A stretch of DNA of 64,000 bases from Candidatus Bathyarchaeota archaeon (GTDB lineage: Archaea > Thermoproteota > Bathyarchaeia > Bathyarchaeales > Bathycorpusculaceae), in contig CAWHDT010000003.1 of NCBI GenBank assembly GCA_963828195.1, positions 288,001 to 352,000 on the forward strand, read 5' to 3'. The notes below the pieces were generated by a model. That model did no database searches and was not told where the DNA came from. It saw only the letters and a list, made by a program, of their open reading frames with translations. Both the position numbers and the translations under genes were made by a program. Of this stretch, positions 1 to 38,292 are shown piece by piece. Within the stretch, counting starts at the first letter, position 1, and the number at the start of each line of letters is the position of its first letter.

Positions 1-128
1 TCTACTCTTTCTTCTATAAAATGGCTTACGAATTGGAACTTAAAATTAAGAATAGTTATGTGAAAGATAGATTTGTGATTAACAACAAATAAGAATAATA
101 TTATGCATTTACTGAGCAGGTGTCTGGT

Positions 129-578
129 ATGGAAAATATTCTAGTGGTGGACGACGACCAAAAAATGCAGGAAATGCTCTCTGAAATTTTGACTGACAAA
201 GGCTACTCCGTCACATGTGTCGCAACCGGCAAGAAAGCTGTTGCTGAAAGCTTCAAACAACTCTACAATTTAGCTTTCATAGATATACTTTTACCAGACA
301 TGAACGGAACAGAATTGATAAGTAAGCTTCGAAAAACAGAGCCTGGTATGATTAAGATAATCATAACTGGAAACGCCACCTTAGACAATTCTATTGAAGC
401 GACAAATCACGGAATAGACGGTTACATCGTGAAACCGTTTGATCCCAAGAAACTACTAAATCTAGTAGAGGTTAAGTTGAAAGAACAGCAGAAGAAAATA
501 CAATTCGACGAGAAAAAAGTAGCCGAATACATTGAGCTAAGACATGAATGGATGGCAAACGCTAACCTCAAAAAATAA
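129..578 (+). CDS. Response regulator (receiver domain with short C-terminal helix)
   Basis: ILVVDDD, DILLPDMNG phosphoacceptor, IITG, YIVKPFD motifs; ATG at 129 (ORF track starts at GTG 120). Confidence 0.9.
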   Translation: MENILVVDDDQKMQEMLSEILTDKGYSVTCVATGKKAVAESFKQLYNLAFIDILLPDMNGTELISKLRKTEPGMIKIIITGNATLDNSIEATNHGIDGYIVKPFDPKKLLNLVEVKLKEQQKKIQFDEKKVAEYIELRHEWMANANLKK

Positions 579-579
579 T

Positions 580-600
580 AGGAAAAATTTTGTTTTCCTA
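580..600 (+). terminator. Short hairpin after response regulator, followed by A/T tracts
   Basis: taggaaaa...ttttccta inverted repeat directly after the stop codon. Confidence 0.4.
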
Positions 601-846
601 ATAATTCAAGTTTAAAATAAAAAATTTATTTTTTATATTTCGGACGCCGCTTTGTCCCTAAATTATGTGTTGAAGTAAGTTGGTGATACTGCCTTTTCAT
701 ATCTGCCGATCCTCTCAGCGTGCGCGGGAAAAACTCACTCCAACAATGCCATGCCAGAATAGCGTAATGCTAGCGCGTTGCCTCCATTTTTTCTAGCGCT
801 GACTTGCGGTGGTCATTGCGCGATTACCGTGCTACAGTCAAGCTTC

Positions 847-1443
847 TCATTCTTTGTTGGATGAAGATAGGAAGTTTACGCCTATGGCTATCATCCAAAT
901 AAGTTGTGGATAAATTATCATTCTTTCCATACCGCCCACGCCAATTCCCAGGTAGCTTGGACGTGTACCAAAATAAAGCACGAGAGCGACAAGCGATGCA
1001 ACACCTAATATTACGGAAAAATACTTGAAAGGACCCCTGATTATTTTGTACGAGGCAATTGCGGCTATGCTCCAAAAGACAAAAACCATGAACGCGCCGA
1101 TGGTGTGAATGATTGGGGTTCCATGAACAATAAATGTGTTTTCAGGAAAAATACCCGCTAAAAGGTAGCCTAAACTTGCCAGAAAAATGGAAGCTGTGAT
1201 TGCCCGATTCTTGAATTCACGGTGAATAAAATATACGCTTATTAGAGCCAATAAGCTTAGCAAGATTGTCGATGGGTCCTCAATTATGGCAGAGGGTTTA
1301 CCCCATACGCCTAGGTCGCTTATGTAGTTCAAAGATGTGCTGTAATTTGGATAAACTGCTTGTGCGAGTAAAATTGCTATGGTATGCTGTGCAGCGGCAA
1401 CAAAAAGTAAGGCTCCAGCCAGTGTCTTGTTGCTATAATTCAT
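847..1443 (-). CDS. DUF998-family membrane protein
   Basis: YPNYS...NYISDLG, GIFPE, IHTIGA, GGMER motifs; about 5-6 TM segments. Confidence 0.8.
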   Translation of the reverse strand: MNYSNKTLAGALLFVAAAQHTIAILLAQAVYPNYSTSLNYISDLGVWGKPSAIIEDPSTILLSLLALISVYFIHREFKNRAITASIFLASLGYLLAGIFPENTFIVHGTPIIHTIGAFMVFVFWSIAAIASYKIIRGPFKYFSVILGVASLVALVLYFGTRPSYLGIGVGGMERMIIYPQLIWMIAIGVNFLSSSNKE

Positions 1444-1513
1444 AACGCGATGGTAAACTGCTTAATATTTAAACCTTGATAATGATTAAAAAGCGGCGCG
1501 CCATTGCCTGTCA

Positions 1514-1981
1514 TCAGTAACCTCGCCACTCATTTGGGTTTTGATATTTGGTGATGGGAGTTGCTTCTTTGGCGTCTTCAACACTCTTGATCATCTGGAC
1601 ATATTCGTTTGTCTTATCTGAGAGGATTTTTTTGAGCATCTCCAGCATTTCCGCTATATTCACAGGCTTCAATAAGTAGCCGTCGGCTTTCTCATTCACT
1701 GACTTCACAGCGTTTTCAATCGAGGGATGACCCGTAACAATTATCTTTACCATCTTGGGCTGAAGCTGCCTCAGTACTTTGAGGAGTTCAACACCTTTAA
1801 TGTCAGGTAACTCGATATCAATTAGGGCAATATCAAACGGTCCGTTTTTACATGCTTTAACAGCTGATTTACCGTTTTCTGCAGTTTCAACTAAATATCC
1901 TGCATCAGTCAAAACAGTAGAAAACAAGTTTCTTGTTCCTTCATCATCATCAATAACCAAAACATTAGATAACATAGACAT
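1514..1981 (-). CDS. Response regulator (receiver domain)
   Basis: VLVIDDD, DIELPD, IVTG, YLLKP motifs; paralogous to 129..578. Confidence 0.9.
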   Translation of the reverse strand: MSMLSNVLVIDDDEGTRNLFSTVLTDAGYLVETAENGKSAVKACKNGPFDIALIDIELPDIKGVELLKVLRQLQPKMVKIIVTGHPSIENAVKSVNEKADGYLLKPVNIAEMLEMLKKILSDKTNEYVQMIKSVEDAKEATPITKYQNPNEWRGY

Positions 1982-2329
1982 CGCCCCTACCTTTTCCAAT
2001 CATGTCTTACACACTGAAGATATGAATAATAAAAATTATGAAGCCTAAAACTGAATCCGCACACCATATTATCAATCAACTTCAATGTGCATTTCCCGAA
2101 AATTTTTCAGACCAGCCACAGCTACAGCAATGTTTGCCCGCTGACTGTTCGGCAAGTGAAGACAGCGCGCAAATCGCCGCCGCTTCAATCTAGTTCTTTT
2201 ACAAAGACCCTATTGATGCTAAAAAACAAAAAAGACAGATAACGAAATGGGGAACCCATTGACAGAAAACGGCTTTGTTAGAAAGCATTTATGAAAGTTA
2301 AGCGTTAAAAATACTTTGAAGGAACCCCG

Positions 2330-2908
2330 ATGTCAGAACAAATAAGAAGCTTCATCGCTTTTGACATGCAAAACGAGCAGGTGCTAAGCCGACTTGCTGA
2401 GGCACAGAAACTTCTGGTTGAATCAGGCGCAGACCTCAGACCGGTAGCGCCGCAAAACATCCATATAACCACCAGATTTTTGGGCGACATCAGCCCCGCC
2501 ATGGTTGACAAAGTTTTCGAGGCGATGAAAAACGTCAAGTTTACCCCTTTCAACATCAAACTCTGCGGACTTGGCGTTTTTCCCAGCCTCAGTTATCCCC
2601 GCGTCGTTTGGGCAGGAATGACCGACGGCGTGGACCAACTTAAAAGCATTTTCACTCAGCTGGAACCTCAGATTCGGGCTTTAGGGTTTGCGGCGGATGC
2701 ATACGGGTTCAGCCCCCACTTAACCATCGCGCGGGTAAGGTCTGGCAGAAACAAGGATGCCCTAGCTGAGTTGGTGACAAAAAAAGCTGATTACGAGTTT
2801 GGCATCATCAAAGCGGACTGCCTTCGGCTGAAAAGAAGCCAGTTGTCTCCTAAAGGTCCAACTTACTCAACGCTAAGAGAAGTCTGCCCGCCAATGGAGC
2901 AGAAATGA
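2330..2908 (+). CDS. thpR: RNA 2',3'-cyclic phosphodiesterase (2H family, 2'-5' RNA ligase)
   Basis: RSFIAF, HITTRF and PHLTIAR 2H motifs; adjacent to cca as is usual in archaea. Confidence 0.92.
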   Translation: MSEQIRSFIAFDMQNEQVLSRLAEAQKLLVESGADLRPVAPQNIHITTRFLGDISPAMVDKVFEAMKNVKFTPFNIKLCGLGVFPSLSYPRVVWAGMTDGVDQLKSIFTQLEPQIRALGFAADAYGFSPHLTIARVRSGRNKDALAELVTKKADYEFGIIKADCLRLKRSQLSPKGPTYSTLREVCPPMEQK

Positions 2909-4326
2909 TAGCTATGCAGGAAATTAGAGAGCAGGTTCTCCAGAAAATTACGCCCAGCAAAGAGGACCGCGAAAAAGTTGAGGCTATAACCCGCGAGCTG
3001 GAGAAGAAAGTATCGTTGGCTTGCAAACAAGAAGGCGTTTCCGCAATTGTGCGTGTTGAAGGCTCAGTTGCCAAAGACACTTGGCTTAGGGAAAACCCAG
3101 ACATCGACATTTTCATGCGGCTCCCAACCTCGATTCCGAGAAAAAACCTCGGCGACATCGGTTTAAAAATCGCCAAGAAAGCAGGCGGTGCATACGAGCA
3201 GGTTGAGCGTTTCGCTGAGCACCCTTACCTTGAAGTATTCGTTGAAGGCTACCGAGTGGACATTGTCCCATGTTACGACGCTAAGCCTGGCGAGTGGCAA
3301 AGCGCCACAGATAGAACACCCTATCACACAGACTACATCAAAAAACGCTTGAGCGTGGAGATGCTGGGGGAGGTTCGGCTGCTGAAGAGGTTCATGCAGG
3401 GTACAGGCGTTTATGGGGCTGAAATAAAGGTCGGCGGATTCAGCGGGTACCTCTGTGAACTGCTGATAATGAAGTACCGTTCCTTTGCCCAAACACTGCA
3501 GGCTTTTGCTCTGTACAATAAGCGTGTCGTAATAGACATCGAAAACTTCTATGCTGACAGACAAAACGAGCTTCCCCTGCTTTTCCCAGAATCGTTAGTG
3601 ATTGTTGACCCAGTGGATAGGGGGAGAAACGTTGCTTCAGCCGTGCAGCCTGAGAAGCTTTACGTTTTTGTAGGCGCCGCCAGAGCCTTCCTTGAAAGAC
3701 CCGATGCAGCCTTCTTTTACCCGCCAAAAACTCAAGCGCTGCCTGTTAAAAACTTAAAGAGCCAGCTTGAAAAGCGCGGTTCAGCCACTGTATTTCTGGC
3801 TATAGACCAAGTGAGCGCTGTTCCCGACGTGCTTTGGGGGCAACTATATAGAACAAAACGTTCGCTGCATAAACTATTAGAATTAGCCGATTACAAAGTC
3901 CTGCGGGACACCGTTTGGAGCAACGAAAAAAACCTCAGCATCTTCGTCTTTGAACTTGAAGGGCAATTTTTGCCAAACATCAAAAAACACCTCGGACCGC
4001 CTCTTGAACGAGAAGAAGAAAGCGAGAATTTCCTAGCTAAATACGCTGACAACCCCCAAGTATTAGCTGGACCCTACATCGAGGCTGGACGCTGGATCGT
4101 CGAGGTGCAACGCAAAAACACTGATTCAGTTGCACTTTTACGGGAAAAACTTGCAGGCGGAGGCAAAAACGCAGGCGTACCTGAACTGATTGCTAAATCA
4201 ATTCTTAAAAAACATAAAATTCTGGTTCACGACGAAATTGTCGGGTTGTACGTTGAGAACGACGATTTCGCCGTGTTCTTAACGGATTTTCTTGAGGGGA
4301 AACCGTTTTGGCTAAAAGCCAAATAA
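2905..4326 (+). CDS. cca: Archaeal class I CCA-adding enzyme
   Basis: GSVAKDTWL, DIDIF, AEHPY, DRTPYH, GGFSGYLCELL, DPVD..RNVA motifs. Confidence 0.96.
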   Translation: MIAMQEIREQVLQKITPSKEDREKVEAITRELEKKVSLACKQEGVSAIVRVEGSVAKDTWLRENPDIDIFMRLPTSIPRKNLGDIGLKIAKKAGGAYEQVERFAEHPYLEVFVEGYRVDIVPCYDAKPGEWQSATDRTPYHTDYIKKRLSVEMLGEVRLLKRFMQGTGVYGAEIKVGGFSGYLCELLIMKYRSFAQTLQAFALYNKRVVIDIENFYADRQNELPLLFPESLVIVDPVDRGRNVASAVQPEKLYVFVGAARAFLERPDAAFFYPPKTQALPVKNLKSQLEKRGSATVFLAIDQVSAVPDVLWGQLYRTKRSLHKLLELADYKVLRDTVWSNEKNLSIFVFELEGQFLPNIKKHLGPPLEREEESENFLAKYADNPQVLAGPYIEAGRWIVEVQRKNTDSVALLREKLAGGGKNAGVPELIAKSILKKHKILVHDEIVGLYVENDDFAVFLTDFLEGKPFWLKAK

Positions 4327-4424
4327 CCCATCTGTGACGACTGCACCTAATTACAGATGAAAAGCAGAAACTTGGCAACGGAGTTGCTGCGAAAGAAATA
4401 AGAATTACCAATACTAGTTGAAAT

Positions 4425-5201
4425 ATGGTAATTTTTATGGAAAATTATAAGCAGCAAGCAGTGGAATTATTTAAAAGTGGGGAAACTGGGGATAATGGAC
4501 CGCTTTCTCACATCAACCCAGATAAATTTGTTCAGCACAACCTTACATTGAAAGACGGCCTTCAAGGACTAATGGAGCGCAGGGCAATTAATCAAAAAAT
4601 CTCGTTTAAAGCCAATCCAGTACGTGCCTTCCAAGATGGAAATTTCGTATTATTGCACTCAGAATTCAACGTGCCAAACGTTTCTTTGATCGGCTTTGAC
4701 ATCTACCGATTTGAAGATGGAAAGATTGTGGAGCACTGGGATAACTTTCAGCCTAAAGCTGAGAAACCGAGTCCGAGCGGGCACACCATGACCGATGGAC
4801 CTACATTTGCCTGGGGGCTTGATAAGACGGAAGCGAATAAAGAGCTTATGCGAACTTACATGGATGACCTGCTTAATGACCGCAAAGAAAAGTTCGCAGG
4901 CTATTTTGACGGCGATAACTATATTCAACATAATCCTTTGGTTGCGGATAATCTAACGGGGCTGTTTGCTGGATTGCAGGCTTTAGCGGCAAAGGGGCTA
5001 GCTGTGAAGTACACCAAGGTCCACATGATTTTAGGAGAAGGAAACTTTGTACTCGTCGTTTCGGAGGGCAACTTCGGCGACAAGCCTTCAGCCTATTACG
5101 ACCTGTACAGAGTCAAAAATGGAAAAATCGCTGAACACTGGGACACCATTCAAGCAATACCTCCGCGTGAAGAATGGAAAAATTCAAACGGCAAGTTTTA
5201 A
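4425..5201 (+). CDS. Tandem SnoaL/NTF2-like domain protein
   Basis: Duplicated FVQHN/YIQHNP and KIVEHWD/KIAEHWD motifs. Confidence 0.85.
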   Translation: MVIFMENYKQQAVELFKSGETGDNGPLSHINPDKFVQHNLTLKDGLQGLMERRAINQKISFKANPVRAFQDGNFVLLHSEFNVPNVSLIGFDIYRFEDGKIVEHWDNFQPKAEKPSPSGHTMTDGPTFAWGLDKTEANKELMRTYMDDLLNDRKEKFAGYFDGDNYIQHNPLVADNLTGLFAGLQALAAKGLAVKYTKVHMILGEGNFVLVVSEGNFGDKPSAYYDLYRVKNGKIAEHWDTIQAIPPREEWKNSNGKF

Positions 5202-5254
5202 CGGGCATCTTTAACATTTTTACCGCATATAGGAATAGCGCCTTACCGAATTGT

Positions 5255-5677
5255 TCATTTCACTCTTTTCCATATCAGGACTCCGGTTTGCTGCTTACCG
5301 CCAAAAATCATCGGCGCCGTGGTCAGCATCAGTTTATCTTCTTCGAACTTGTAGAAGCGTTCCAGTTTTTCGCCTACCCAATTCGGAATTAAGCTCACTT
5401 CTACAAGATGTATCACCTTATCTTCAGTGACTTCATACTTACCGCAATATGAGATGTAGGCCCTTGCCGCGGCTATCATTTCTTCTGCTGGGATGCTCAT
5501 CGGGTCTGGAGACGAAAATCTTCGTCTCTTTGAAGCCATAATTGCTACTGCCATGAATCCATCACGGTTGTACATGATATAGCCTACGGGGTCATTTCCG
5601 AAGGGGTAGGTCACTTGGTCGCCTGACCGATTTTCGTAGGACACGAGCTTCCATGTTCCTATAAATTTTTCAGACAT
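5255..5677 (-). CDS. Lipocalin-like domain protein
   Basis: FIGTWKLVSY, GYIMY..DG, YISYCGKY, PNWVG, LIWKR. Confidence 0.85.
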   Translation of the reverse strand: MSEKFIGTWKLVSYENRSGDQVTYPFGNDPVGYIMYNRDGFMAVAIMASKRRRFSSPDPMSIPAEEMIAAARAYISYCGKYEVTEDKVIHLVEVSLIPNWVGEKLERFYKFEEDKLMLTTAPMIFGGKQQTGVLIWKRVK

Positions 5678-5915
5678 AAATCCCACTTGCTCAAAAGAAG
5701 CCCTTTCTTTCTGAAAAATCTTGTGTTGATATGCTTTTTACTTATTCACACTATTCCAGAGTTTTGTTAAGATTATGATGAAACAGCTAGATGGAAAAAT
5801 AGCAAAATTGCGACCTGAATTCTCTGTCAACTCCTAGTTCCTTCAGGAATCAATCTAAATCTTAGAACTAACATGTTATATTTTGAATGAATTAGGTGAT
5901 AATTGGAGCCTAGCC

Positions 5916-6518
5916 ATGTCAAATAATGATTATTGGGAAAGCGCTTATACAAGCGGGGAATACAAGCATTGGGAGTTCAGTTACCCCTCGCCTGAGCTTA
6001 TCGCCCTTGCAGCCGCCAACGTGCCAAAGAGAAATGCGCGGGTTCTCGACGTTGGATCGGGCGGTGGAACCGATGCGGTCTTTATGGCTCAACGCGGATT
6101 CAGAGTCACAGGTATAGATATCAGTGCAGTTGCGCTTAAAATCGCGGGGAAAAGAGCAAAAAAAGCTCGTGTTAAAGTGGATTGGCTCAGAGGGAGCGTT
6201 TTTGAGCTGCCGATTGCAGCTGAATCAGTAGATTTCTTGATTGACCGTGGTCTATTCCACCTCATAGAAGACGTTGATCGACCCAGATACGCCTCCGAAC
6301 TTTTTCGGGTATTAAAAAACGATGGGCAAGCCCTGATAAGAGGCGCCAGCGGCGAATCACCTCACGACCAATTCAACCCCGTAACCGAAGAAGCCATCGA
6401 CAGATACTTTTCCAAATCAAAATTCAAAAGAGGTCCAGTGCTGCCGATTCCGCTCTTCTCAGTTGAGGGCGCAATGGGTGCTAGGATTGTAATGCTCCAG
6501 AAAATGGGGAAAGCTTAA
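5916..6518 (+). CDS. Class I SAM-dependent methyltransferase
   Basis: VLDVGSGGG, VTGIDIS, DRGLFH motifs. Confidence 0.9.
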   Translation: MSNNDYWESAYTSGEYKHWEFSYPSPELIALAAANVPKRNARVLDVGSGGGTDAVFMAQRGFRVTGIDISAVALKIAGKRAKKARVKVDWLRGSVFELPIAAESVDFLIDRGLFHLIEDVDRPRYASELFRVLKNDGQALIRGASGESPHDQFNPVTEEAIDRYFSKSKFKRGPVLPIPLFSVEGAMGARIVMLQKMGKA

Positions 6519-6522
6519 CCAC

Positions 6523-7683
6523 TTATTGTGTTACTGAGTGGTACCAGCTGATTATGTATTCGGGCAGGTTCAGCCCTCTTTGTCCCAGGCGTTCAGCCAG
6601 CTTTACTGGGATTGGGCTAAGCACGTAGGCTGCTCGGGTGTAGAAGCGTCTTGGCGTTTGTGGCTTGGCTTCTTCGGGGAGTATGATTTTTAGGTCTGCT
6701 TTTTTTGCCAGAGTTGAGTCGGGAGAGGTTGTTATTGCAAATACTGTTCCAGCGAACTTTTTGATTACGTCAGCCCATATAATGACGGGTCTGGTTTCGC
6801 CCGAGTACGATAAGAGAATTTCAAGGTCGCCAGCTCTTGGATGCGGAGTATTAACGCCTCTAGTTATGTAGACGTTGTCGCCCAAGAAGCTTTTGATGTG
6901 GAAAAGTCTTACGCCCGTCATCTTCGCAATCTCGTTGCCAGTGCCTTTTCCGCCCAAAAACACGTTTGTTCGTTTTTCAAGCAAGTCAACAAGCCGCGTA
7001 TAAGTTTCAGAGCTAACGTTTGAATCTATCATTTCGCCGATTTTCTCGAATTCTTCAACGCAAAACCGAAAAACATCGTCAACCTCAAGGTTACGGAAAA
7101 CCGCCTCCACCATGCTGTTCATAAGCTCAAGAGTACCTAACTCGAAAATGTCGCCCATCATACCCGTTTCGCTGTACTCAGTTCCCGGCTTAGATTTCCC
7201 GCGCCCCTTAAGCTCAACCACGTTCCCGTACTTGCCAACTACATCAGCCAAAGGCGACTCAGTAGCGGAGGTGAAAAGCCCCATGGTGAACTTGTTTGAT
7301 TTTTTTTCTTCAATGTACTTGGCTAGGTCCTGAGCCATAACTAGCGGGTCGTCGGAGTAGCCGCTGCCTGAATTTATCAAAAGCAACGTTTTTTTGTAGC
7401 GCCTTCCAAGGTCGGCAGCCGCATCATACATGCTTTTGCCTGGGAAACCTGGGTCATCAGGAGTTAAAACCACCTTGTTTCTCCAACCTGCTTGGCTCAA
7501 CGCAATCTGGCTTAAAGCAGCATTTAAAGAGTAAAGAGATCTGCCTGATCCTCCGCAGATTACGCAGTCAGCCGCTTTCAATTCATCAAATAACGGGGAG
7601 AGTTCTTTTCGCTTGATGCTTAAAATGTTCTCTTGGATTTTGTTGACGTATCCGATGCTGCTGATTTTGCTTTTGATTCCAAC
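6523..7683 (-). CDS. Tandem SIS-domain sugar-phosphate isomerase-like protein (6-phospho-3-hexuloisomerase-like)
   Basis: GSGRS, INSGSG and LSYSGET SIS motifs in two halves; the frame stays open about 34 codons upstream of the ORF-track start (IGYVNKIQENILSI), so the true start is uncertain. Confidence 0.75.
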   Translation of the reverse strand, partial: VGIKSKISSIGYVNKIQENILSIKRKELSPLFDELKAADCVICGGSGRSLYSLNAALSQIALSQAGWRNKVVLTPDDPGFPGKSMYDAAADLGRRYKKTLLLINSGSGYSDDPLVMAQDLAKYIEEKKSNKFTMGLFTSATESPLADVVGKYGNVVELKGRGKSKPGTEYSETGMMGDIFELGTLELMNSMVEAVFRNLEVDDVFRFCVEEFEKIGEMIDSNVSSETYTRLVDLLEKRTNVFLGGKGTGNEIAKMTGVRLFHIKSFLGDNVYITRGVNTPHPRAGDLEILLSYSGETRPVIIWADVIKKFAGTVFAITTSPDSTLAKKADLKIILPEEAKPQTPRRFYTRAAYVLSPIPVKLAERLGQRGLNLPEYIISWYHSVTQ

Positions 7684-7820
7684 CGCACCTTCAGTGTCAA
7701 GATGATTTACTGAATCTCTATATTATCCTTGCGCTTGCCAGCAAGCAAAAACGCCAACGCTCAATCAACTCCGTTAACTGCTCCGGCACTTTTACACAGG
7801 TTCCTGCGAGGCTACGCTAA

Positions 7821-8504
7821 ATGTTTATATCAAAAGAAACCCTCACGCAAGAAGCCAGTGTGAAAAATATGCCCTCCCCAAGTGAAGCAGAAAAATACCA
7901 GTTTCTAGTAAAGCTTGCGTTGGATAACGGTGCCGCCGACGCCAAAATTATCTCAGCAGACAAAGTGGTTGTTGAAGACCGCGTGGTTCTTAAATGCAAA
8001 GTCGGCTGCAACCATTACGGCAAAACGTTGGCTTGTCCCCCCTACACCCCGTCAGCTGAAGAGTTTAGAAAAATAGTTCGCGAATACCGCTATGCCATGT
8101 TTATGAAGTTCAAGTCCAAAGCCCAAGCTGACCCCGAAGTGTATAAGCAGCTTTCAGTGGCCGAAACAGACCCCGCCGTCCCAAAGGAAATCAAGGAAAA
8201 AGCAGCGCAGTTTTGGGCAGACTGGAAAGACGACAAGAAAAAAATGCTCCAATCCGTCGTAGACTTGGAAAAAGCAGCCATGAGCAAAGGCTACTCCCTC
8301 GCCATATCGTTTGTTTCAGGAACCTGCCAGCTGTGCGAAAAATGCAATACAGAAACAAAAATTTGCGTCCACCCCAATCTGGCGCGCTGGTCAGAGGACG
8401 CCGTCGGAGTAAACGTGAGAAAAACCGCGGCAAACGCTGGAATCGAGGTTATCTTTCCGTTTGCGAAAAACCCCGAATCGTTCGCATTGCTCCTCATAGA
8501 TTAA
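7821..8504 (+). CDS. DUF2284-family Cys-rich metal-binding protein
   Basis: KCKVGCNHYGKTLACPPY, LEK, GTCQLCEKC, CVHP..AR.S..AVGVNV. Confidence 0.85.
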   Translation: MFISKETLTQEASVKNMPSPSEAEKYQFLVKLALDNGAADAKIISADKVVVEDRVVLKCKVGCNHYGKTLACPPYTPSAEEFRKIVREYRYAMFMKFKSKAQADPEVYKQLSVAETDPAVPKEIKEKAAQFWADWKDDKKKMLQSVVDLEKAAMSKGYSLAISFVSGTCQLCEKCNTETKICVHPNLARWSEDAVGVNVRKTAANAGIEVIFPFAKNPESFALLLID

Positions 8505-8517
8505 CCCCTCGTCATGG

Positions 8518-8553
8518 GGAAGAAACTAAAAAACGCCTTGCCCAGCCTTCATG
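8518..8553 (+). repeat. Partial copy (5' part) of a dispersed intergenic repeat
   Basis: 27/36 identical to 13695..13730 (ggaagaRacYaaaaaacgcc...gcYttcatg). Confidence 0.6.
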
Positions 8554-8715
8554 TGTGTCTGCGCGGGGGAAAATGTTGCTGAAGTAGGAGATCTTCACTT
8601 TGAAGGCTTCCATAAGGCCTTATTGCGATTCATGAGCCGACTGACTGCAGCAAACGCCGAAATTCCTAGTGAGCTAACAAACAATAAATGCTGATTACGT
8701 TAAACTACGCCGAGG

Positions 8716-9195
8716 CTATACTGCCGCTTTTGGGGTTTTTGGTTTTCTTGGTCGCCATGTTAAAGCACTATAGATCGTAAACGCTAAGAGAGCCACAAAC
8801 ACTGCTGCTTTGATGGCTGTGAAGTCTACGATGGCTGAGTAAAGGGCGAATGCTGCGGGGAATCCTCCGATGTATACTGAGAAAAATATTGCTGTGGGCA
8901 GTTTGTAGTTGTATTTGTAGTCTTTGAATATGCGTCTGCCAAAGTACAAGGCTGCCAAGCGCCCCATGCCATGAGTGCATTTTATGCAATTGTAGCATGG
9001 ACGTAGGCAACCCAGAATGTGAAGTACACCATAAACCAAGATAAGGGTTAGAATAAAAAACACAATACCTGCTACCAAATCATATAGCAGAAAAGCCACT
9101 GAATCAAGAACAATCCACAGGAAAAGCGCTAGGTTACCAAAGAGAACCAGATTTTCTGGGAAGAAAATTGGTCAACCGTTTTTTGGTTCCGTCAT
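8716..9195 (-). CDS. Cys-rich membrane protein with an in-frame TGA at codon 8
   Basis: ATG at 9195 after gagg: MTEPKNG*PIFFPENLVLFGNL..., in frame with ORF 8716..9099; CLRPCYNCIKC motif; about 4 TM. Confidence 0.65.
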
Positions 9196-9214
9196 GACAG
9201 CCTCTTCGCGCGCC

Positions 9215-9631
9215 TTACTCTTCTTTGCTTTCGAATTCAACTGTTACGGGCGTCGGATTCTTGAAGATTAAGAGTACCGGGCAGTTTGCTTCGGTTCGTC
9301 TCCATGCTGCTTCCACGAGTGCTTTCCGTGCTTTTGAAACTACGTTGACCTTCATAGTTAAGTTTGATACATTAGGACCGTCAGGAGCTTTGTCTGCTTC
9401 AACTGTTATCTCCACTTTGCTTGGTTGGATGTTACTCTTTTTGCAAACATCGGCGAAAATTGTGACTCCGCAATCTGCCAGAGCCATCATGCTGAGCTCA
9501 AGTGCTGATGGACCACTATCCGTTCCGCCGGCAGCAGTTCCCATATCGCAGACTACGCTGTGGGTTCGTTGGTTGTCCACTATTGTGCGAACATTTTCAA
9601 CCCAAGTCGCTTTAGCTTTGATTTTTGCCAT
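9215..9631 (-). CDS. OsmC-family protein
   Basis: GGTDSGPSALELSMMALADC and ANCPV motifs. Confidence 0.88.
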   Translation of the reverse strand: MAKIKAKATWVENVRTIVDNQRTHSVVCDMGTAAGGTDSGPSALELSMMALADCGVTIFADVCKKSNIQPSKVEITVEADKAPDGPNVSNLTMKVNVVSKARKALVEAAWRRTEANCPVLLIFKNPTPVTVEFESKEE

Positions 9632-9651
9632 TTGTTTCACCTCTTGTTTGG

Positions 9652-10038
9652 TTAATGCGAATGTTCATGGTGGTGCGCGTGTTCGCATCCACTGGCGAGT
9701 TCGGTAAGTTTGCCTGCTTTAAAGGAATCAATCGTTGCCTTGACCGTAGCGTCCTGTGCCTTGAGTACTGTTACCCCTGCATTTTGGAAGCTTTGTAATG
9801 CTCCTGGGCCCATTGCAAAGGCAACGATAACATCAGGCTTCAATGAAAGAATTGTTTCATGCGGGTGACCAGCTCCTCCGACATGTTCTCCTGTATTAGG
9901 CTCAGTTTTGACCGTTTGAATTTGACCCTTTTCGTCAATATCCACGATTGCAAAGTAGGGTGCTCTTCCGAAATGTTGCGCTACCGCAGCATTCAAATCT
10001 GCCTCATCTTCTACAGGTACAACCAATCTTTTCGTCAT
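9652..10038 (-). CDS. NifB/NifX-family (FeMo-cofactor biosynthesis-like) protein with His-rich tail
   Basis: HFGRAPYF, MGPGA, C-terminal CEHAHHHEHSH. Confidence 0.88.
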   Translation of the reverse strand: MTKRLVVPVEDEADLNAAVAQHFGRAPYFAIVDIDEKGQIQTVKTEPNTGEHVGGAGHPHETILSLKPDVIVAFAMGPGALQSFQNAGVTVLKAQDATVKATIDSFKAGKLTELASGCEHAHHHEHSH

Positions 10039-10130
10039 TTTTTTCAACCTTAATCAATTATCTGATAGAGTTTAATAGATAAATAATATTAATAACTATC
10101 GTTTATAAAATAAACTCGGTTGAGAGCACT

Positions 10131-31282: not shown

Positions 31283-31837
31283 TTACGTTCTTTGCATCAT
31301 TGGAAATTTGTAATTCGTTTTTTTGCCAATAAAGTAGCCAATGAAACCGCCTGTTATCCAAGAAAGAATAAGGGTGATTCCAGCAAAATAATCGGCAGTT
31401 AAGTCTGTCATCCCCCACCTAAACCCGCTTGCATTTGAAATCAACATAATTATAGCCCAAAAAGCAAAACCAAGTAGAGATGCTCCAACAATCACGTAAA
31501 TTTCTTTGCCAAGCTTAACTCCGCTTTTCCCAAACTTCTGTCTGTAGCTGTCTAATTCAAGTTCTGGGAAAGCAATCATTTCATCTAAAACAAAATGACC
31601 CTTATCCGTAAGTGAAAATTGTGAATCTGCTTGTTCAGATATTAAATGCTCTTCATCAATTGTTAATTTTTCAAGAGTGTTTAATTGATATGTAAGCTCT
31701 TGAGCGTCGTCAATCTTTAAATTAGTCATTAAATCGTCAAAAGTTAAATGTCCATGTTCGCCAAGTTGCAGTAATATTTTTTGGCGCAGAGGCTCTTTTA
31801 AAATTTCATGCAACTGAACAAGCTTTTCATCGTTCAT
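31283..31837 (-). CDS. Winged-HTH protein with two C-terminal TM helices
   Basis: LHEILKEPLRQKIL, LTFDDLM, FSLTDKG; hydrophobic C-terminus. Confidence 0.75.
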   Translation of the reverse strand: MNDEKLVQLHEILKEPLRQKILLQLGEHGHLTFDDLMTNLKIDDAQELTYQLNTLEKLTIDEEHLISEQADSQFSLTDKGHFVLDEMIAFPELELDSYRQKFGKSGVKLGKEIYVIVGASLLGFAFWAIIMLISNASGFRWGMTDLTADYFAGITLILSWITGGFIGYFIGKKTNYKFPMMQRT

Positions 31838-32634: not shown

Positions 32635-33435
32635 ATGGCAAACCCAAGTTATAACTGGAACGCGGCGGACTACGCAAAAAACAGCCAAAACCAGCAACAG
32701 TGGGCACGGGAGCTTATTCCCAAACTAAAACTGCGCGGAAACGAGGCTTTGCTGGACATCGGCTGCGGCGACGGAAAAATCACGGCAGAACTTGCACGGC
32801 ACCTGCCTGAGGGCTGGGCAGTGGGAGTTGACAGTTCAGAAAAAATGATAAATCTGGCACAAAACTCTTTTCCGCAAAAAGATTACCCGAACCTGACTTT
32901 CCAAGTTATGGATGCAAGGAAACTGGCTTTCCAATCGCAATTCGACATAGCATTTTCTAACGCGGCGCTGCACTGGATTGTTGACCAAAAATCCGTTCTT
33001 GCGGGCGTGCAAAGAAGCCTTAAGCCAGGCGGCAGACTGCTGTTTCAGATGGCGGGCAAAGGCAACGCCAAAGACGTACTCAGCATCATATACGAGTTGG
33101 CGGATGAAGACCCTTGGACACAGTATTTCCACAAAATGGCGTTCCCCTATGGCTTCTATGACCCTGAAGAATACAGAGGTTTCCTTAAACAGGCAGGTTT
33201 GGCGGCTGAGCGGGTTGAGCTTTTTCCCAGAGACATGAAATTTAACGGCGCAGAGGGCTTAGCAGGATGGATAAGAACCACGTGGCTGCCCTTCACAGAC
33301 AAGCTACCCGCAGAGCTTAGACAGAAATTCGTTGAGCAAATCGTCAACCGCTACCTCAAAAATCACCCCTCAGACGCTGAGGGCACGGTTCACGTTTGCA
33401 TGATACGCATAGAAGCAGAAGCTTACAAATCGTAA
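32635..33435 (+). CDS. Class I SAM methyltransferase (trans-aconitate methyltransferase-like)
   Basis: WNAADY, LLDIGCGDGKIT, FSNAALHW, LKPGG. Confidence 0.9.
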   Translation: MANPSYNWNAADYAKNSQNQQQWARELIPKLKLRGNEALLDIGCGDGKITAELARHLPEGWAVGVDSSEKMINLAQNSFPQKDYPNLTFQVMDARKLAFQSQFDIAFSNAALHWIVDQKSVLAGVQRSLKPGGRLLFQMAGKGNAKDVLSIIYELADEDPWTQYFHKMAFPYGFYDPEEYRGFLKQAGLAAERVELFPRDMKFNGAEGLAGWIRTTWLPFTDKLPAELRQKFVEQIVNRYLKNHPSDAEGTVHVCMIRIEAEAYKS

Positions 33436-33451
33436 AGAATATTAATGGACC

Positions 33452-33664
33452 TTAGATAACCCCCGCTTTTTCTCTGCGATTAATCTGAGCAACCTTAAGA
33501 ATAGAAGCAAAATAATCCAAGTCCTCGTCTGGAACCTGCCAACGATTCTTGTTAACCGATGAATCAATCGCTTGGCCCTCTATGATGCCTGTTTGTCTTA
33601 GGTCATCAAGACTAGCTTTTACATCGACGTCATATATCAATTCCAAAGTCTGATTCGCCTCCAT
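33452..33664 (-). pseudogene. Truncated N-terminal fragment resembling an archaeal provirus prohead protease/scaffold gene
   Basis: IEGQAIDSSVNKNRWQVPDEDLDYF..L..AQ; ggagg RBS; ends abruptly; assignment from recalled resemblance. Confidence 0.55.
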
Positions 33665-33756
33665 TAGCACTTTTACGAAAAGCCAACGTGGAAAAAAAAT
33701 CAAGTTAGACCTTTCCGATGCGTGGGTGTACTCTCCCAGTCTTCAATCTCTTCCTC

Positions 33757-33784
33757 GTTCTAATTTTTAGAACAATTGTTCTAA
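33757..33784. promoter_or_regulatory. Triple alternating half-site palindrome (putative operator)
   Basis: GTTCTAA-ttt-TTAGAAC-aatt-GTTCTAA, about 47 bp upstream of 33831. Confidence 0.5.
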
Positions 33785-33830
33785 GAAGAAGGCATAAGAG
33801 CGATTGCAATAAGTCATTCTATGGATAACC

Positions 33831-34469
33831 ATGAAGAAAATACTCTTGGTCACAGTTGCAGTTATACTTACAATAATTCTTGCTCTTAGTTATTTTATCA
33901 TTATCACGCCAGTTGAGAAAGCTGAAAAGCCTGATGCAAGTGATGCTTCACATATTCCTGCTAGTGACCCTGTTCCAAATCTCGTTTTCACAGTGAGCTC
34001 GGAAGTGCTTAACAGCCCAATGATTGACAATAAGCTTGCTTTGCCACCACCAAATTATTACACTAATGTTACTCAGGGAAGTGACCTAAAAATCAATGTA
34101 ACAATTACGTCAACCGGACTTGAAGAAGTAGTCAACGTTACGAGCGTTGATGTATGGTGGTATAATCCCCAAGTTAATTTGTACACATGGTATGAGCCAC
34201 CTAACACAGGTAATGAAAGCAGTGTAATTCAGGCAAGTGCTTTTAACTATTCTTCAAGCCCTAACCCTGTCAGCCTACAACCATCCACGTCCAATTCCAC
34301 CATTATCACACTTAACATAGCAAAAGATGCACCTACGGGTCAATATTCGATGTACATAAATCTGGAGGCTGAACTCAAGCAATCAAATGAAAATGAAACC
34401 TCAGAATTTAACGTACTGGAACAGGCATATTGGTTTTCGATGATAATAAATCCTGGTCCAACTGCTTAA
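33831..34469 (+). CDS. Membrane-anchored secreted protein with Ig-like beta-sandwich
   Basis: N-terminal TM; IAKDAPTGQY motif; many N-x-S/T sequons. Confidence 0.7.
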   Translation: MKKILLVTVAVILTIILALSYFIIITPVEKAEKPDASDASHIPASDPVPNLVFTVSSEVLNSPMIDNKLALPPPNYYTNVTQGSDLKINVTITSTGLEEVVNVTSVDVWWYNPQVNLYTWYEPPNTGNESSVIQASAFNYSSSPNPVSLQPSTSNSTIITLNIAKDAPTGQYSMYINLEAELKQSNENETSEFNVLEQAYWFSMIINPGPTA

Positions 34470-34551
34470 CACAATAGCATGCGCAGTTCGGGTGTACGTT
34501 GCAGGCGAAGGTATCATCGGCGACAAATTCACCGTAGGGAAAGAGAGAGCG
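34408..34551 (-). pseudogene. C-terminal fragment of a MuF/SPP1 gp7-like head morphogenesis gene (copy 1)
   Basis: RSLFPYGEFVADDTFACNVHPNCACYCVKQ preceded by an in-frame TAG; 34461..34542 is 70/82 identical to 35312..35393. Confidence 0.75.
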
Positions 34552-34775
34552 CTAAGCCATCATTTCAGTATGTATCGTAGCAGTTGGAATAACCTGCCTA
34601 TTGCCCGTAATATTTACCCCACAAATTTCTGGGCGTCGATTTGCATATAATTGGACCTCCTTGCGAATAAGCAAATTTTAAATAAAGGCGCAGTTTAAGA
34701 AGATAGATAGATAAACCTGAAAATCGGGTAGAAAAAATTTTCTAAACAAAATTGTATCCCATTGAAGGTTAACCC

Positions 34776-35210
34776 ATGGTCTCAAAGATTTCCAAAGGAA
34801 CAGGAACAAAATTCTCCAGATATGCCATTATACTTGCCATAGTGATGATTGTGAACGTCGTGATAATCATCCTTTTGACTCCAATTGGCTTTGAGACCCG
34901 CCCGACATCCGCCTTGAAGACGCTCGGCTACATTGCGATTACTACTATTTTTGTCGGTCTCGCACTGGACTTGACGTCAATTGTCCTTCTGTTGAAGAGA
35001 ATCAGAGTCAGATTAGCTTCGAGTCTTGTGATCATCAGCTCGGTCGCATTCCTCTTGGTCATTTTGGTAGATCGAACCGGGTCCTTCTTCTCGGTACCAA
35101 CCCCTCCTGCAATTAACCACCTCGAATACATCTTCGCCGCCGTATTGATCGTGACCCTCATTATTGCGTCATTGGTCTACAGAGAGAGTAAGCACACTTC
35201 AAGCCATTGA
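34776..35210 (+). CDS. Uncharacterised 4-TM membrane protein
   Basis: Four hydrophobic segments; TPIGFETRP motif. Confidence 0.75.
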   Translation: MVSKISKGTGTKFSRYAIILAIVMIVNVVIIILLTPIGFETRPTSALKTLGYIAITTIFVGLALDLTSIVLLLKRIRVRLASSLVIISSVAFLLVILVDRTGSFFSVPTPPAINHLEYIFAAVLIVTLIIASLVYRESKHTSSH

Positions 35211-35291
35211 CTTCTGTCGAACTCCAGACACAGAATCCGGAAAGCTTTCGACAGTTGTTGCATTATTTCCAGCTTTCACACTCATGCAACT

Positions 35292-35612
35292 TCAAGCATT
35301 TTGAAAATCTGACTGCTTAACACAGGAGCATGCGCAGTTCGGGTGAACGTTGCAAGCAAAGGTTTCATCGGCTACGAATTCGCCCCACGGAAAAATATCC
35401 TTCAGATCGTCAGGGTCATCCAGCTCGTACTCGCCGCCGTCGTAATCTGCGCATTTTGCGAATGTGTTAGGGTTTTTGGAGTTGTAGAAGCGCCAGGTAG
35501 AGAATTTTATGTTAGGATCCACAACAGCAGCTTCAAAGCTTTTGACAGCGATAACGGCGATGACCGCCTCCTGATATATCTCCAGCACAAGGCTTCCTCT
35601 TTTTCCGTTCAT
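35292..35612 (-). CDS. Small MuF/SPP1 gp7-like head morphogenesis protein (copy 2)
   Basis: T(F)AKC..YDG and HPNCAC correspond to the CxxC..DG and HPNCRC motifs of this family. Confidence 0.65.
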   Translation of the reverse strand: MNGKRGSLVLEIYQEAVIAVIAVKSFEAAVVDPNIKFSTWRFYNSKNPNTFAKCADYDGGEYELDDPDDLKDIFPWGEFVADETFACNVHPNCACSCVKQSDFQNA

Positions 35613-35733
35613 TGATGCTTAGTTAAGAAACTTTGACATAACAACGAAATTCTACCTCAAGAAAGTTTGACGAATAACCTTTTATCGGTCTTGCTGCCCA
35701 ACAACTTATTGAAACCAAGAGGGTGAATAACAA

Positions 35734-36273
35734 TTGCCTGACATGAGAGCTCCCTCAAGAAGAAAAGTTATACTGTTGGGTTTGTTAGCTATTCTTATAA
35801 TATTCATGGGCTATGTCATTTATGTAGACGTTGATAATGCGATAAAAAGTTCTAATCCATCGCCTACAACTAAGCCCGTGATTGAACAGCTAATTCCCCC
35901 TGCCTACCCAAATAATCCTTCTAATTACTCGCTTGTGAGTAACTACTCAATAACTATCCCCGAAATATACACTGGTGGCGACATTCCAGTGTATTACGTT
36001 TCTATGAAATTTATAGCGCCATTATCTAGTCTTCAAAGCGAAGAAAATTGGACTATTACAAATTACACCGTCCTTAGGGTGCCATTTCCTTTTACCACTT
36101 GGGCAAGCAACACAAGCACGTCTTCAAGCCCGTACTCAATTGCCCAAATTCTTCCAGCAGTCTTTAACGGAACAACAATAGCAGTTAAAGTTGATGTATA
36201 TGGATACAACGGCTTTGGTGTCCAGTTTGAAACTTCCAAAGAATGGAATGTAACGGAATATGTTTACAGTTAG
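35734..36273 (+). CDS. Membrane-anchored secreted protein
   Basis: RRK followed by TM; S/T/N-rich extracellular domain; agggtga RBS. Confidence 0.7.
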   Translation: MPDMRAPSRRKVILLGLLAILIIFMGYVIYVDVDNAIKSSNPSPTTKPVIEQLIPPAYPNNPSNYSLVSNYSITIPEIYTGGDIPVYYVSMKFIAPLSSLQSEENWTITNYTVLRVPFPFTTWASNTSTSSSPYSIAQILPAVFNGTTIAVKVDVYGYNGFGVQFETSKEWNVTEYVYS

Positions 36274-36633
36274 TGCACCACATCTTTTCTCCAAACAGGT
36301 GTAAACGGTAACTCTTAAGTCGAGAAACTACTTGCGGTATCTATATCCTTTGCAGTTATGGTGTCAAAGCAGTCAAGGCAAGGCTCGCACAAGATACGCA
36401 GCCCCATTACCCGCCTTAACCGACTTCGCAGGCAACTTACTATGAACCTTTCTCGATTAACTTGAACTTTCAGAGTGCTGTTCTTCTGGCTGTCCGAACG
36501 TCTCTGGTTGCATTGTTGCTGCGGCTTCAAATCACCCCTATTTGCCTCTAGCATTCCAAGTTCGGCAAAGGCTTCTTTTCACTAAAATGTGTCAATCACT
36601 TTAAGCCGTATTCTTCGGCAAAACTTTTTATCT

Positions 36634-36859
36634 TTATAAATTTGCCGCGTCTACAAGTTTCTCAATTTCTTTGACGAACTCTGGCTTTAGTTCGTGACCA
36701 TTTACTTCGGTGGTATCTAGATAAACTTGAATGACTTCGTTGATTCCATTCATCACTTCATCAAGAGTTTTTCCCTGAATGTGACAGCCTGGTAAACTCA
36801 GGAACAGAAGCTACATAATATCCATCCTTATCCTTTTCAACGACTATACCCAATTTCAC
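36634..36859 (-). pseudogene. hicB: HicB-family antitoxin, frameshifted, with no hicA partner seen
   Basis: MKLGIVVEKDKDGYYVASVPE / PGCHIQGKTLDEVMNGINEVIQVYL with one extra base near 36795. Confidence 0.8.
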
Positions 36860-37017
36860 TTTATCACTAGGCATTACACTGAAATGAGATAACCATTACT
36901 AAAGCCTTTTTTCAATGCTAACTTGCGTGTTTAGCGGATTTTGAGTCGGATAGATTCAAACTCTGTGCGAGAGTTTAAAAGAATAATTGCTGCATCTTAA
37001 GCAAAGGAGAAAACGCT

Positions 37018-38292
37018 ATGCCAACGTTCCAAACTGTCCGCGGAATGCGGGATTTACTCGGTGAAGAAGCGCAGACCTTCACACACATAATCGCCAAAGC
37101 CCGAGAGACCGCTGCGCTCTACGGCTACAAAGAAGCTATAACGCCAGTGGTTGAGCCGCTTGAGCTACTCAGCGCGAAGTCCGGTGAAGAAATCCGCCAG
37201 CGCATGTTCATATTCAAGGATTTGGGCGAGCGTCAAGTGGCGCTACGTCCAGAATTCACCGCTTCAATCGCGCGGCTAGCCACAACAGCCCTCAAAAACG
37301 AACCCAAACCCCTTCGGCTTTTCTCAGTGGGCAGCGTTTACCGTTATGATGAGCCGCAGCGTGGGCGGTATCGGGAGTTTTGGCAGTCAAACTTCGAACT
37401 CATGGGCTCAGGCAGACCTGAGGCAGACGCCGAAATCGTCTTGCTGACAAACAGCTTGATGATGGGGTTGGGTTTGCATGGTTACGCCTTCAAAATCGGC
37501 CATATCGGCGTGATACGGGGGATACTCAGCCAAGAGGGCGTGGAAGAAAAGACCCAGAACGCAATTCTGCAGCGCATGGATAAGAAAGAATACGAGGAAG
37601 CGTTCAAGCTGGCGCCCACGGAGAAGTGCCGCGTTATGCTTGAAGGGCTGCTCGAGTTGAAGGGAGGCGACTGTTTTGAAACGGTCGAAAAAATCAAGAG
37701 CTATGTGGCTGGCTGCGATAAAGCTAAGGCTGCAGCAGAAAACCTGTGCGAAATCCTCAAGCTCATTGTTGAGAGCGGCTGTCCAATTCAAACAGTTGAG
37801 CCCGCGTTCGCAAGGGGCTTGGAGTATTACACGGGCATGATTTTTGAAATCTATATTCCCGAACTGGACATTGCATTGGGCGGCGGAGGCAGATATGACA
37901 GACTTATCGAATTATTCGGCGGGGAACCCACGCCAGCGGTTGGCTGCGCTCACGGGATTGACAGGGTCGCGCTTGCGTTGCAAACCCAGAAAGCAACAGT
38001 TGCAGGCAAAGCTGGACCCCGCGTGCTTGTTCTCGCCGTGAACGAGGCGCTCAAGGCTGAAGCATTAAAAATTGCGCAGATGCTTCGAGGCTTGGGGGTT
38101 GTTGTGGAGTTTGAAATTATGGGCAGGAAGATGGGGAAGGCTTTGGAGGATGCGGATAAGCGGAAAGCTGATTTCGCGGTGATTGTCGGTGAACGTGAAC
38201 TCAAGGACGGCGCTGTAATGCTTAGGAATCTATCTAGGCGGGAGCAAACGACTGTTCAAATTAAAGAGTTGGCTGAAAAAATCAGAAGCTAA
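37018..38292 (+). CDS. hisS: Histidine--tRNA ligase
   Basis: VRGMRD, LRPEFT, YRYDEPQRGRYREF, RGLEYYTG, GGGRYD. Confidence 0.97.
   Translation: MPTFQTVRGMRDLLGEEAQTFTHIIAKARETAALYGYKEAITPVVEPLELLSAKSGEEIRQRMFIFKDLGERQVALRPEFTASIARLATTALKNEPKPLRLFSVGSVYRYDEPQRGRYREFWQSNFELMGSGRPEADAEIVLLTNSLMMGLGLHGYAFKIGHIGVIRGILSQEGVEEKTQNAILQRMDKKEYEEAFKLAPTEKCRVMLEGLLELKGGDCFETVEKIKSYVAGCDKAKAAAENLCEILKLIVESGCPIQTVEPAFARGLEYYTGMIFEIYIPELDIALGGGGRYDRLIELFGGEPTPAVGCAHGIDRVALALQTQKATVAGKAGPRVLVLAVNEALKAEALKIAQMLRGLGVVVEFEIMGRKMGKALEDADKRKADFAVIVGERELKDGAVMLRNLSRREQTTVQIKELAEKIRS

Follow-up and report, generated by a model that had tools for sequence, protein, structure and literature searches.

How do intact genes for membrane and secreted proteins come to lie interleaved with, and antisense to, broken viral head genes in an archaeal chromosome? 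We addressed this question in a 64,000-nucleotide (nt) stretch of DNA (hereafter the window; positions 288,001 to 352,000 of contig CAWHDT010000003.1, assembly GCA_963828195.1) from a Candidatus Bathyarchaeota archaeon, whose genome is referred to as G000, its contigs as C2-C9 and its sister species as G016. The original prediction, made from the sequence alone, had seen here either repeated capture of morons, extra genes inserted among viral structural genes, or an archive of viral fragments used in defence. Between the end of a host methyltransferase (MTase) gene (33435) and a frameshifted hicB gene (36596-36874) we found a 3.13-kb insert (33446-36576) with a viral share of ~870 nt. On the minus strand it carries a portal 3' end, a MuF-like gene, a second MuF 3' end and a prohead-protease 5' end, in the viral order, and three intact membrane or secreted cargo genes (sec3, mem and sec1) are interleaved with these pieces and antisense to them. 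The insert is part of a tailed-virus head module of Bathyarchaeia, and the locus is probably a moron islet whose viral scars acted as a landing pad for recombination. Its features are as follows.

33446..33665, minus strand, 5' fragment of a prohead protease gene, ~70 of 360 codons, 85% nt identity to IMG/VR contig L040.
33831..34469, plus strand, sec1, a 212-residue membrane-anchored surface protein with one N-terminal transmembrane (TM) segment and seven N-glycosylation sequons.
34457..34544, minus strand, second MuF-like 3' end, of another viral lineage than the whole copy, an 82-nt repeat at 85% identity.
34559..34629, plus strand, remnant (71 nt, signal-anchor region) of a fourth cargo gene, 84.5% nt identity to L048 and 80% to L039.
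34776..35210, plus strand, mem, a 144-residue four-TM protein, moron of the MuF-protease slot, 94% amino acid and 95% nt identity to the same-slot moron of provirus L055.
35292..35612, minus strand, whole MuF-like head-morphogenesis open reading frame (ORF), 106 residues, slot-type new start, 78% amino acid identity to L034.
35734..36273, plus strand, sec3, a 179-residue membrane-anchored surface protein, whose homologue is a moron in the C9 provirus (61.5% amino acid identity).
36332..36411, minus strand, old MuF start with conserved slot-flank spacer, 88% identity to the G016 scar and 90% to provirus L047 over 36371-36332.
36372..36576, minus strand, frameshifted 3' end of a portal gene, 79% nt identity to L040 portal positions 1248-1452.

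As predicted, plus-strand genes alternate with viral pieces on the minus strand, every viral piece lying tail-to-tail after a plus-strand gene, and the pieces have close viral homologues as supposed: besides the matches given above, the second MuF end is 85% identical in nt to L039 and L040, and the portal 3' end together with the old MuF start (36576-36332) is 79% identical to L040. Because a reversed-library control of the viral-piece search gave 0 matches, we do not regard the pieces as chance. The portal family corresponds to the PHROG 9232 portal (E 5.5e-15), and the protease family has a fold like T4 gp21 (Foldseek 5jbl, E 1.3e-5, prob 1.00), a match obtained with a full-length viral homologue of which the window stub holds the first 70 residues only. 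PHROGs searches with the window pieces and the protease alignment returned no matches, nor did PDB sequence searches. In alignment the protease stub has an altered catalytic-His position and lacks the Ser region, residues that we assign by what we take to be the HK97-type protease motifs; compared by eye with L043, it differs at 2 of the first 52 residues and ~11 of the last 18, where a Fisher p of 2e-5 came from rough hand counts. The larger MuF-like piece is a whole ORF, in which the first Cys of a CxxC motif is changed (11/11 other aligned rows retain it), but its label is weaker, drawing on two PF04233 profile matches under the Pfam cut-off (E 0.0024 and 0.00032) and on a position between portal and protease that fits MuF; no structural match at E<=0.001 came from fold searches, and PF04233 is annotated in 4/85 MuF homologues. 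Since the second MuF end differs from the whole copy at 12/82 nt, 10 of the 12 at codon position 3, and is 95% identical to provirus L055, it came from another virus and not from local duplication. The predicted list of pieces was incomplete, having missed the portal 3' end with the old MuF start, the 71-nt remnant and the two-box element described below. It was right in seeing no terminase or capsid gene, of which there is none at the locus, and no integrase, for which there is no match within the window; 5 matches occur in the genome, the nearest 68 kb before the window start.

Intact viruses have the gene order terminase, portal, MuF, protease, decoration, capsid, and the portal-MuF-protease order at the locus is that of L034-L043 and the C9 provirus. 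Close MuF relatives were found at 13 IMG/VR loci and 15 genome loci, with the titled genome records all Bathyarchaeia bar one probable misbin. In L049, titled as a bacterium, an archaeal virus head module is joined to bacterial genes (1-4600 vs 4443-10083), probably through chimerism or misbinning. Among 19 virus or provirus loci, the genes occupying the slots on either side of MuF were antisense in 8/8 cases, so that the antisense layout at the locus is inherited; both slots are empty in L037, L040, L041 and L043, and one is filled in L034, L038, L039, L047, L052, L053, L055 and C9. Across whole structural modules, inserted ORFs were antisense in 21 cases and sense in 18, some of the sense ones probably being core genes missing from the reference set. 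Contigs from public sequencing runs have joints that skip exactly the cargo slots (33646-35302, 35534-36373 and 33646-34762), as viruses in which no slot or one slot is filled would produce. Viral 3' ends duplicated beside morons also occur within proviruses: in L056 (3501-6377), L051 (8001-9663) and L133 (2-2726) a second copy of the upstream viral gene's 3' end comes after a moron, perhaps preserving translation of the next gene. Proviruses related to the scar virus lie in G000 at C9 159400-181818, C2 72500-75000, C6 54300-58612 and C7 1-20600; three of them begin just after tRNA genes, and morons lie between most structural genes of these proviruses. Integrase-like genes lie at provirus ends, not at scar islets.

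Exchange of cargo at the locus is indicated by comparison with G016, the only one of 120 genus genomes with a match across the MTase/protease junction. The G016 scar has the same skeleton, the same breakpoint inside the protease and shared derived bases beside that breakpoint, yet its cargo differs in both slots: slot 1 holds a gene for a 251-residue Ig-like protein, and slot 2 an intact fourth cargo gene (155 residues), also intact in virus L039, of which the window retains just the 71-nt stump. In the MuF tree (18 rows, none left out) the window copy fell in a clade with L034, L037, L038, L053, L055 and L056 (support 100/99) and the G016 copy outside it (approximately unbiased (AU) test, p=0.026). 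Identity to L055, 77-90% in the body of MuF, climbs to 87-100% from ~35320 through mem and falls after 34762, which suggests a crossover to an L055-type allele in the last ~60 nt of the whole MuF ORF. This identity step resembles the homology trace reported for phage mosaics in the available part of De Paepe 2014 (PMC3945230). In pattern, the presumed recombinant unit has a homologous anchor (MuF) on one side and an abrupt non-homologous end after the mem upstream region, with most of the fourth cargo gene lost. Between G000 and G016, 49-57% of the synonymous sites in host genes differ, yet the scars are 71-88% identical, too close for neutral decay since the split, which points to refreshment, later transfer or selection. 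With the same scar bearing different cargo in G016, a donor-like provirus in L055 and discordant MuF ancestry, the predicted repeated capture of morons with viral scars is borne out. Towards hisS, G016 also carries another gene, and its portal stub is shorter; the frameshifts of G016, present even in hisS, may be assembly errors.

The insertion site is flanked by host genes.

32635..33435, plus strand, class I S-adenosylmethionine (SAM) methyltransferase (MTase), host left flank, not cargo, Pfam Methyltransf_31 E 6.9e-24.
36596..36874, minus strand, frameshifted HicB-like antitoxin gene, host variable site, not viral, Pfam HicB_lk_antitox E 2.9e-5.
37018..38292, plus strand, hisS, host right flank, Pfam tRNA-synt_His E 1e-60.

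In the proposed comparison of the endA-hisS interval, endA-MTase-hisS was contiguous in 8/29 relative loci, which, contrary to the prediction, makes MTase a host gene and not cargo. The MTase-hisS gap measures 72-3607 nt in 15/20 nearer genomes (those with hisS in reach), its contents across the genus (relatives L062-L081) are mainly toxin-antitoxin and other small genes, and viral structural pieces occur, among the 20 nearer genomes, in G016 only. G083 has an intact hicB orthologue directly between MTase and hisS (75% nt identity over 36594-37013), an order that represents the pre-insertion state. Given these gap contents and the G083 order, we regard the site as a general hotspot, and both MTase and hicB as non-viral; hicB is broken, as predicted, but is a host gene at a variable site. 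We dropped a reading of hicB as a HicB/DUF2683 chimera, since G083 carries the intact orthologue. At the junctions host spacer is joined directly to mid-gene viral DNA, with ~28 non-viral nt left between MTase and hicB compared to 35-38 in empty relatives, and no tRNA or integrase was found at the site. Guanine-plus-cytosine (GC) content in 1-kb bins of the insert is 0.40-0.44, within the range of the window, and that of the flanking host genes 0.485 and 0.534. Contigs from four public runs showed 0 differences across several joints, e.g. 36180-36784, 35066-35328 and 33530-33802; the MTase/protease joint and 34457-34660 were unbridged among the public-run pieces listed, and the best run may be the source sample.

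These observations would fit together in four steps. The tailed viruses of the genus carry putatively self-promoted surface- and membrane-protein morons in slots between structural genes, and the slots either side of MuF hold antisense genes. To judge by the junctions, such a virus would have supplied a linear piece, with its breaks inside portal and protease, that was joined into the MTase-hicB spacer in an ancestor of G000 and G016, without an integrase and probably through end joining of the microhomology type. As the host flanks have lost almost nothing, we favour direct capture of broken DNA from a virus over the double deletion of an integrated provirus. The retained stubs, 70-90% identical to circulating viruses, would then have acted as homology arms, with crossovers in MuF and one-sided homologous/illegitimate events replacing MuF and cargo and leaving a duplicate MuF end and the 71-nt stump of a displaced gene. 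Finally, selection would keep the cargo (dN/dS, the ratio of nonsynonymous to synonymous substitution rates, 0.25-0.30) as the stubs decay, the antisense stubs being tolerated as they yield no truncated virion protein and can supply U-runs for termination. That the scar served as a recombination landing pad is thus the most likely reading.

Similar islets occur elsewhere in G000, which outside three proviruses has 14 structural-gene scar segments at 8 loci (one row, a full terminase on C6, excluded; the reversed library gave 0 matches). The pdxT islet (1.3 kb) has its empty site in G016, and the C8 islet (5.8 kb) is absent from 5/5 genomes checked, of which the 3 with junctions read are clean. 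Both inserts start and stop inside viral sequence; at their junctions up to ~10 nt of host DNA is missing and the microhomology, as read by eye, spans 3-4 nt. Comparison with the empty sites revealed no tRNA, attachment (att) site or target duplication. Microhomology joining has been reported in Haloferax, according to the available part of PMC7521656. Similar scar-cargo islets also occur in G016, G087, G023, G019, G110 and G131. A genus-wide head-module search scored 2 candidates per genome and yields no scar count.

Several points weigh against a landing pad. Orthologous scars with swapped cargo amount to one pair, and at the C5 605 kb islet scar and cargo alike are shared with G016. Monophyly of the G000 and G016 protease scars could not be rejected (AU p=0.29). 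Along the MTase gene, identity to G016 is uniform apart from one 93% stretch, which neither shows nor excludes co-transfer, and, with the other hisS-side gene and shorter portal stub of G016, transfer of the islet between species is possible. The order of events in 34457-34760 is ambiguous, such that a virus may have assembled the unit, which then entered in a single swap. Searches returned no viral contig carrying sec1 and no Ku match in G000, and ordinary provirus decay also occurs in the genus, as in the element between secY and cmk described below. In another species, L060 (80-1794) carries, 6 kb from a MuF scar, genes that resemble Ku and LigD by putative motifs.

It is unlikely that the mosaic was built wholly inside viruses, the block having entered each chromosome separately or moved between species with no landing pad. 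The moron-plus-duplicated-end pattern of L051 and L056 would be accounted for in this way, as would the resemblance of both the duplicate MuF end and mem to L055, scars more alike than neutral decay predicts and an insertion site that is a general hotspot; however, the identical protease breakpoint and shared derived bases in both species are unlikely to have arisen twice, and block transfer alone cannot yield different cargo and different MuF lineages.

Quite improbable, too, is in-place decay of one integrated provirus, of which three morons and stubs would remain with no later exchange. The original prediction had named colinearity with a single decayed provirus as an outcome that would count against it, and the insert is indeed colinear with one head module, its stubs decaying, yet several viruses contributed to the mosaic. 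According to the available text of Zhang 2026 (PMC13626063), degenerate proviruses generally retain morons, and a decaying provirus is common to G000, G031 and G129 between secY and cmk. This element (G000 C5 554900-577500) has head and tail genes and a portal 79-83% identical to those of the G031 (also by cmk) and G129 elements, gave no match to terminase large subunit, rep or integrase, and looks like a vertically kept defective element. At the locus, however, there is no att, tRNA or integrase, and the ~28 non-viral nt are close to the spacers of empty relatives; the MuF copies are of different lineages, the cargo differs from that of the orthologous scar, and two other islets have clean empty sites. 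The absence of later exchange is largely refuted by the MuF tree and the L055 identity step.

Very doubtful is an antisense-RNA archive, as raised by the original prediction, in which stubs are kept antisense and read-through RNA blocks the structural-gene mRNA of infecting viruses. Orientation, when counted, was non-random: neighbours read into G000 scars antisense 11:1 (7:1 outside the window) after dropping the C6 full terminase and 12:2 with it, the rows not being independent. In 18 selected loci of other genomes the ratio was 15:7, compared to 21:18 for inserted genes across whole viral structural modules; the presence of scars was the basis for choosing these 18 loci, four of them fall within near-whole proviruses, and L128 was wrongly scored as 'away'. 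Antisense reading also comes from three host genes (MTase, pdxT and the C8 hydrolase), the 110 nt past the sec1 stop contain no T-run of >=4, and scars are conserved beyond neutral expectation. The public runs listed included no RNA run. Against this, the MuF-slot orientation was already present in intact viruses, purging of sense read-through into truncated virion genes predicts the same bias, and the T-runs of MTase and sec3 come within 31 nt of the stop (31 nt downstream for MTase, supplied by the protease scar, and 11 nt for sec3; 88 nt for mem); T-runs are 1.7x denser on the antisense strand of viral genes. The longest exact match measured 11-14 nt against resident proviruses and 22-34 nt against any virus fetched, and the host carries whole proviruses of the same virus family. 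No Piwi (PF02171) match was found in G000, which is 96% complete, although plain antisense pairing needs none. With the layout inherited and exact matches to resident proviruses of at most 14 nt, the defence archive is unsupported. A simple CRISPR finder gave 15 spacers in G000, none matching fetched loci or scars, which is uninformative. We give equally little credence to the broader notion that the scattered scars form a non-CRISPR antiviral memory, captured, kept antisense behind active genes and refreshed by recombination, with read-through RNA suppressing virion genes; if true, it would be a prokaryotic parallel of endogenous-viral-element immunity. The orientation bias thus poses a question of tolerated silence versus antisense defence.

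Dominant-negative peptides, with the MuF-like ORF (Cys lost) and the protease stub (His lost) expressed to poison capsid assembly, fit worst and are scarcely credible, for although the MuF ORF is whole, both pieces lack conserved residues and dN/dS against viruses is low (0.05-0.23), the low dN/dS reflects viral ancestry, the necessary sense transcription is disfavoured in scars that avoid sense read-through, the portal stub is frameshifted and without a start, and the G016 protease stub is decayed throughout.

To return to the landing pad and what it would carry, the cargo genes are all intact with dN/dS 0.25-0.30, indicating purifying selection, and the viral stubs are decayed. The stop of sec1 sits inside the MuF 3' fragment, and its homologue in G064 is 65% identical in amino acids (dN/dS 0.26). 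Homology of sec3 to the C9 provirus moron runs from promoter box to stop (dN/dS 0.25); a viral contig search for sec3 returned none. Among 378 homologues of mem none has a named function. No named family was found for sec1, sec3 or mem, and the ESM Atlas gave hypothetical clusters only for mem and sec3. By analogy, surface variation or superinfection exclusion would be the likeliest role, and exclusion of superinfecting viruses is plausible by comparison with HK97 gp15 as described in the available part of PMC3594210.

The sec3 cassette begins with a distinct upstream element.

35616..35688, plus strand, two-box upstream element (GTCAAGAAAnTTTGAC-like, twice) with a TATA-like tract, start of the sec3 cassette.

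This element has 13 sites in G000 at E<=0.0015, 7 of them training sites; it also precedes viral slot morons and was not seen before sec1 or mem. Its boxes are palindromic, and 12/13 sites lie 22-48 nt before genes with signal-peptide-like starts; further sites include C5 246457, C7 148470, C8 145082 and C4 392. Since many chromosomal secreted-protein genes have it upstream and 2/3 cargo genes lack it, we dropped it as a recombination site and consider it more likely regulatory, probably marking a surface-protein regulon, shared by host and virus, of a putative factor. A hairpin after mem was not significant (z -1.39), and a bacterial-model promoter and terminator scan was at chance (10 vs 7.6; 5 vs 3.0), the sigma-70 model not being applicable.

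Integron cassette arrays also stack several promoter-bearing accessory genes at one site. Unlike integrons, the locus has no integrase or repeated attC-like site, and each cargo gene has its own upstream region; we rejected an integron, there being no adjacent tyrosine recombinase and the only long repeat being the 82-nt MuF duplicate, and likewise an IS6 cargo transposon, with no recombinase and no terminal repeats. Morons of the HK97 gp15 type are self-promoted, variable extra genes between structural genes, often encoding membrane proteins (Cumby et al. 2012, PMC3594210, available part). The cargo here resembles them as extra genes between conserved structural genes that are missing from related viruses, but is archaeal and lies in a host chromosome with only 70-320-nt viral stubs. 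Defective or 'grounded' prophages exchange DNA with live phages over 80%-like homology, and an identity step marks the exchange (De Paepe 2014, PMC3945230; Ramisetty 2019, PMC6379469; PMC13626063; each in its available part). As in these, core genes are lost, morons are kept and the mosaic has a homology trace at its border; unlike these integrase-derived elements of many kb, the islets are 0.1-6 kb, lack att and integrase, end inside viral genes, and at this islet the flow is from virus to chromosome. In Vibrio type VI secretion effector-immunity and Rhs arrays, a homologous anchor with an illegitimate far end leaves orphan stubs (Kirchberger 2017, PMC5361080, available part). The locus shares the pattern of one anchor, an illegitimate end, a displaced resident gene and stubs left behind, although the anchor is a dead viral gene and not a working host gene, and there is no toxin-immunity array; the text of PMC5361080 available here gave no demonstration of homology-facilitated illegitimate recombination in archaea. 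A siphovirus-like provirus of Bathy-6 is common in Bathyarchaeia, its widespread genes interspersed with foreign ones (Nesbø 2024, PMC11697101; Duan 2024, PMC10848311). We liken the scar virus to it by description, and the available parts of those accounts describe neither slots for morons nor scar islets nor any swapping of cargo.

Morons, their retention and the recombination of phage remnants are already known, and known processes largely explain the locus, in a new lineage-wide form. The literature covered, with most subscription papers and supplements outside its scope, described no integrase-free moron islets with viral stubs, or cargo swapping at stubs, in archaea. Bathy-6-like genomes have large sets of secreted-protein genes gained by transfer and duplication, for which the available part of PMC11697101 gives no mechanism. 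The locus offers a plausible route, in which viruses gather surface-protein morons, broken pieces lodge without an integrase and later viruses overwrite the cargo. Islets of 1-6 kb would escape provirus callers relying on att sites or hallmark genes.

Three further observations were made in G000. On the minus strand of the window, 31283-31837 encodes an ArsR-like helix-turn-helix and membrane protein of a type that recurs as a moron in Bathyarchaeia tailed viruses. C3 carries a CRISPR array with a duplicated spacer pair (403196-403996) and, at 100933-101016, an ARAGORN call of tRNA-SeC (tca).

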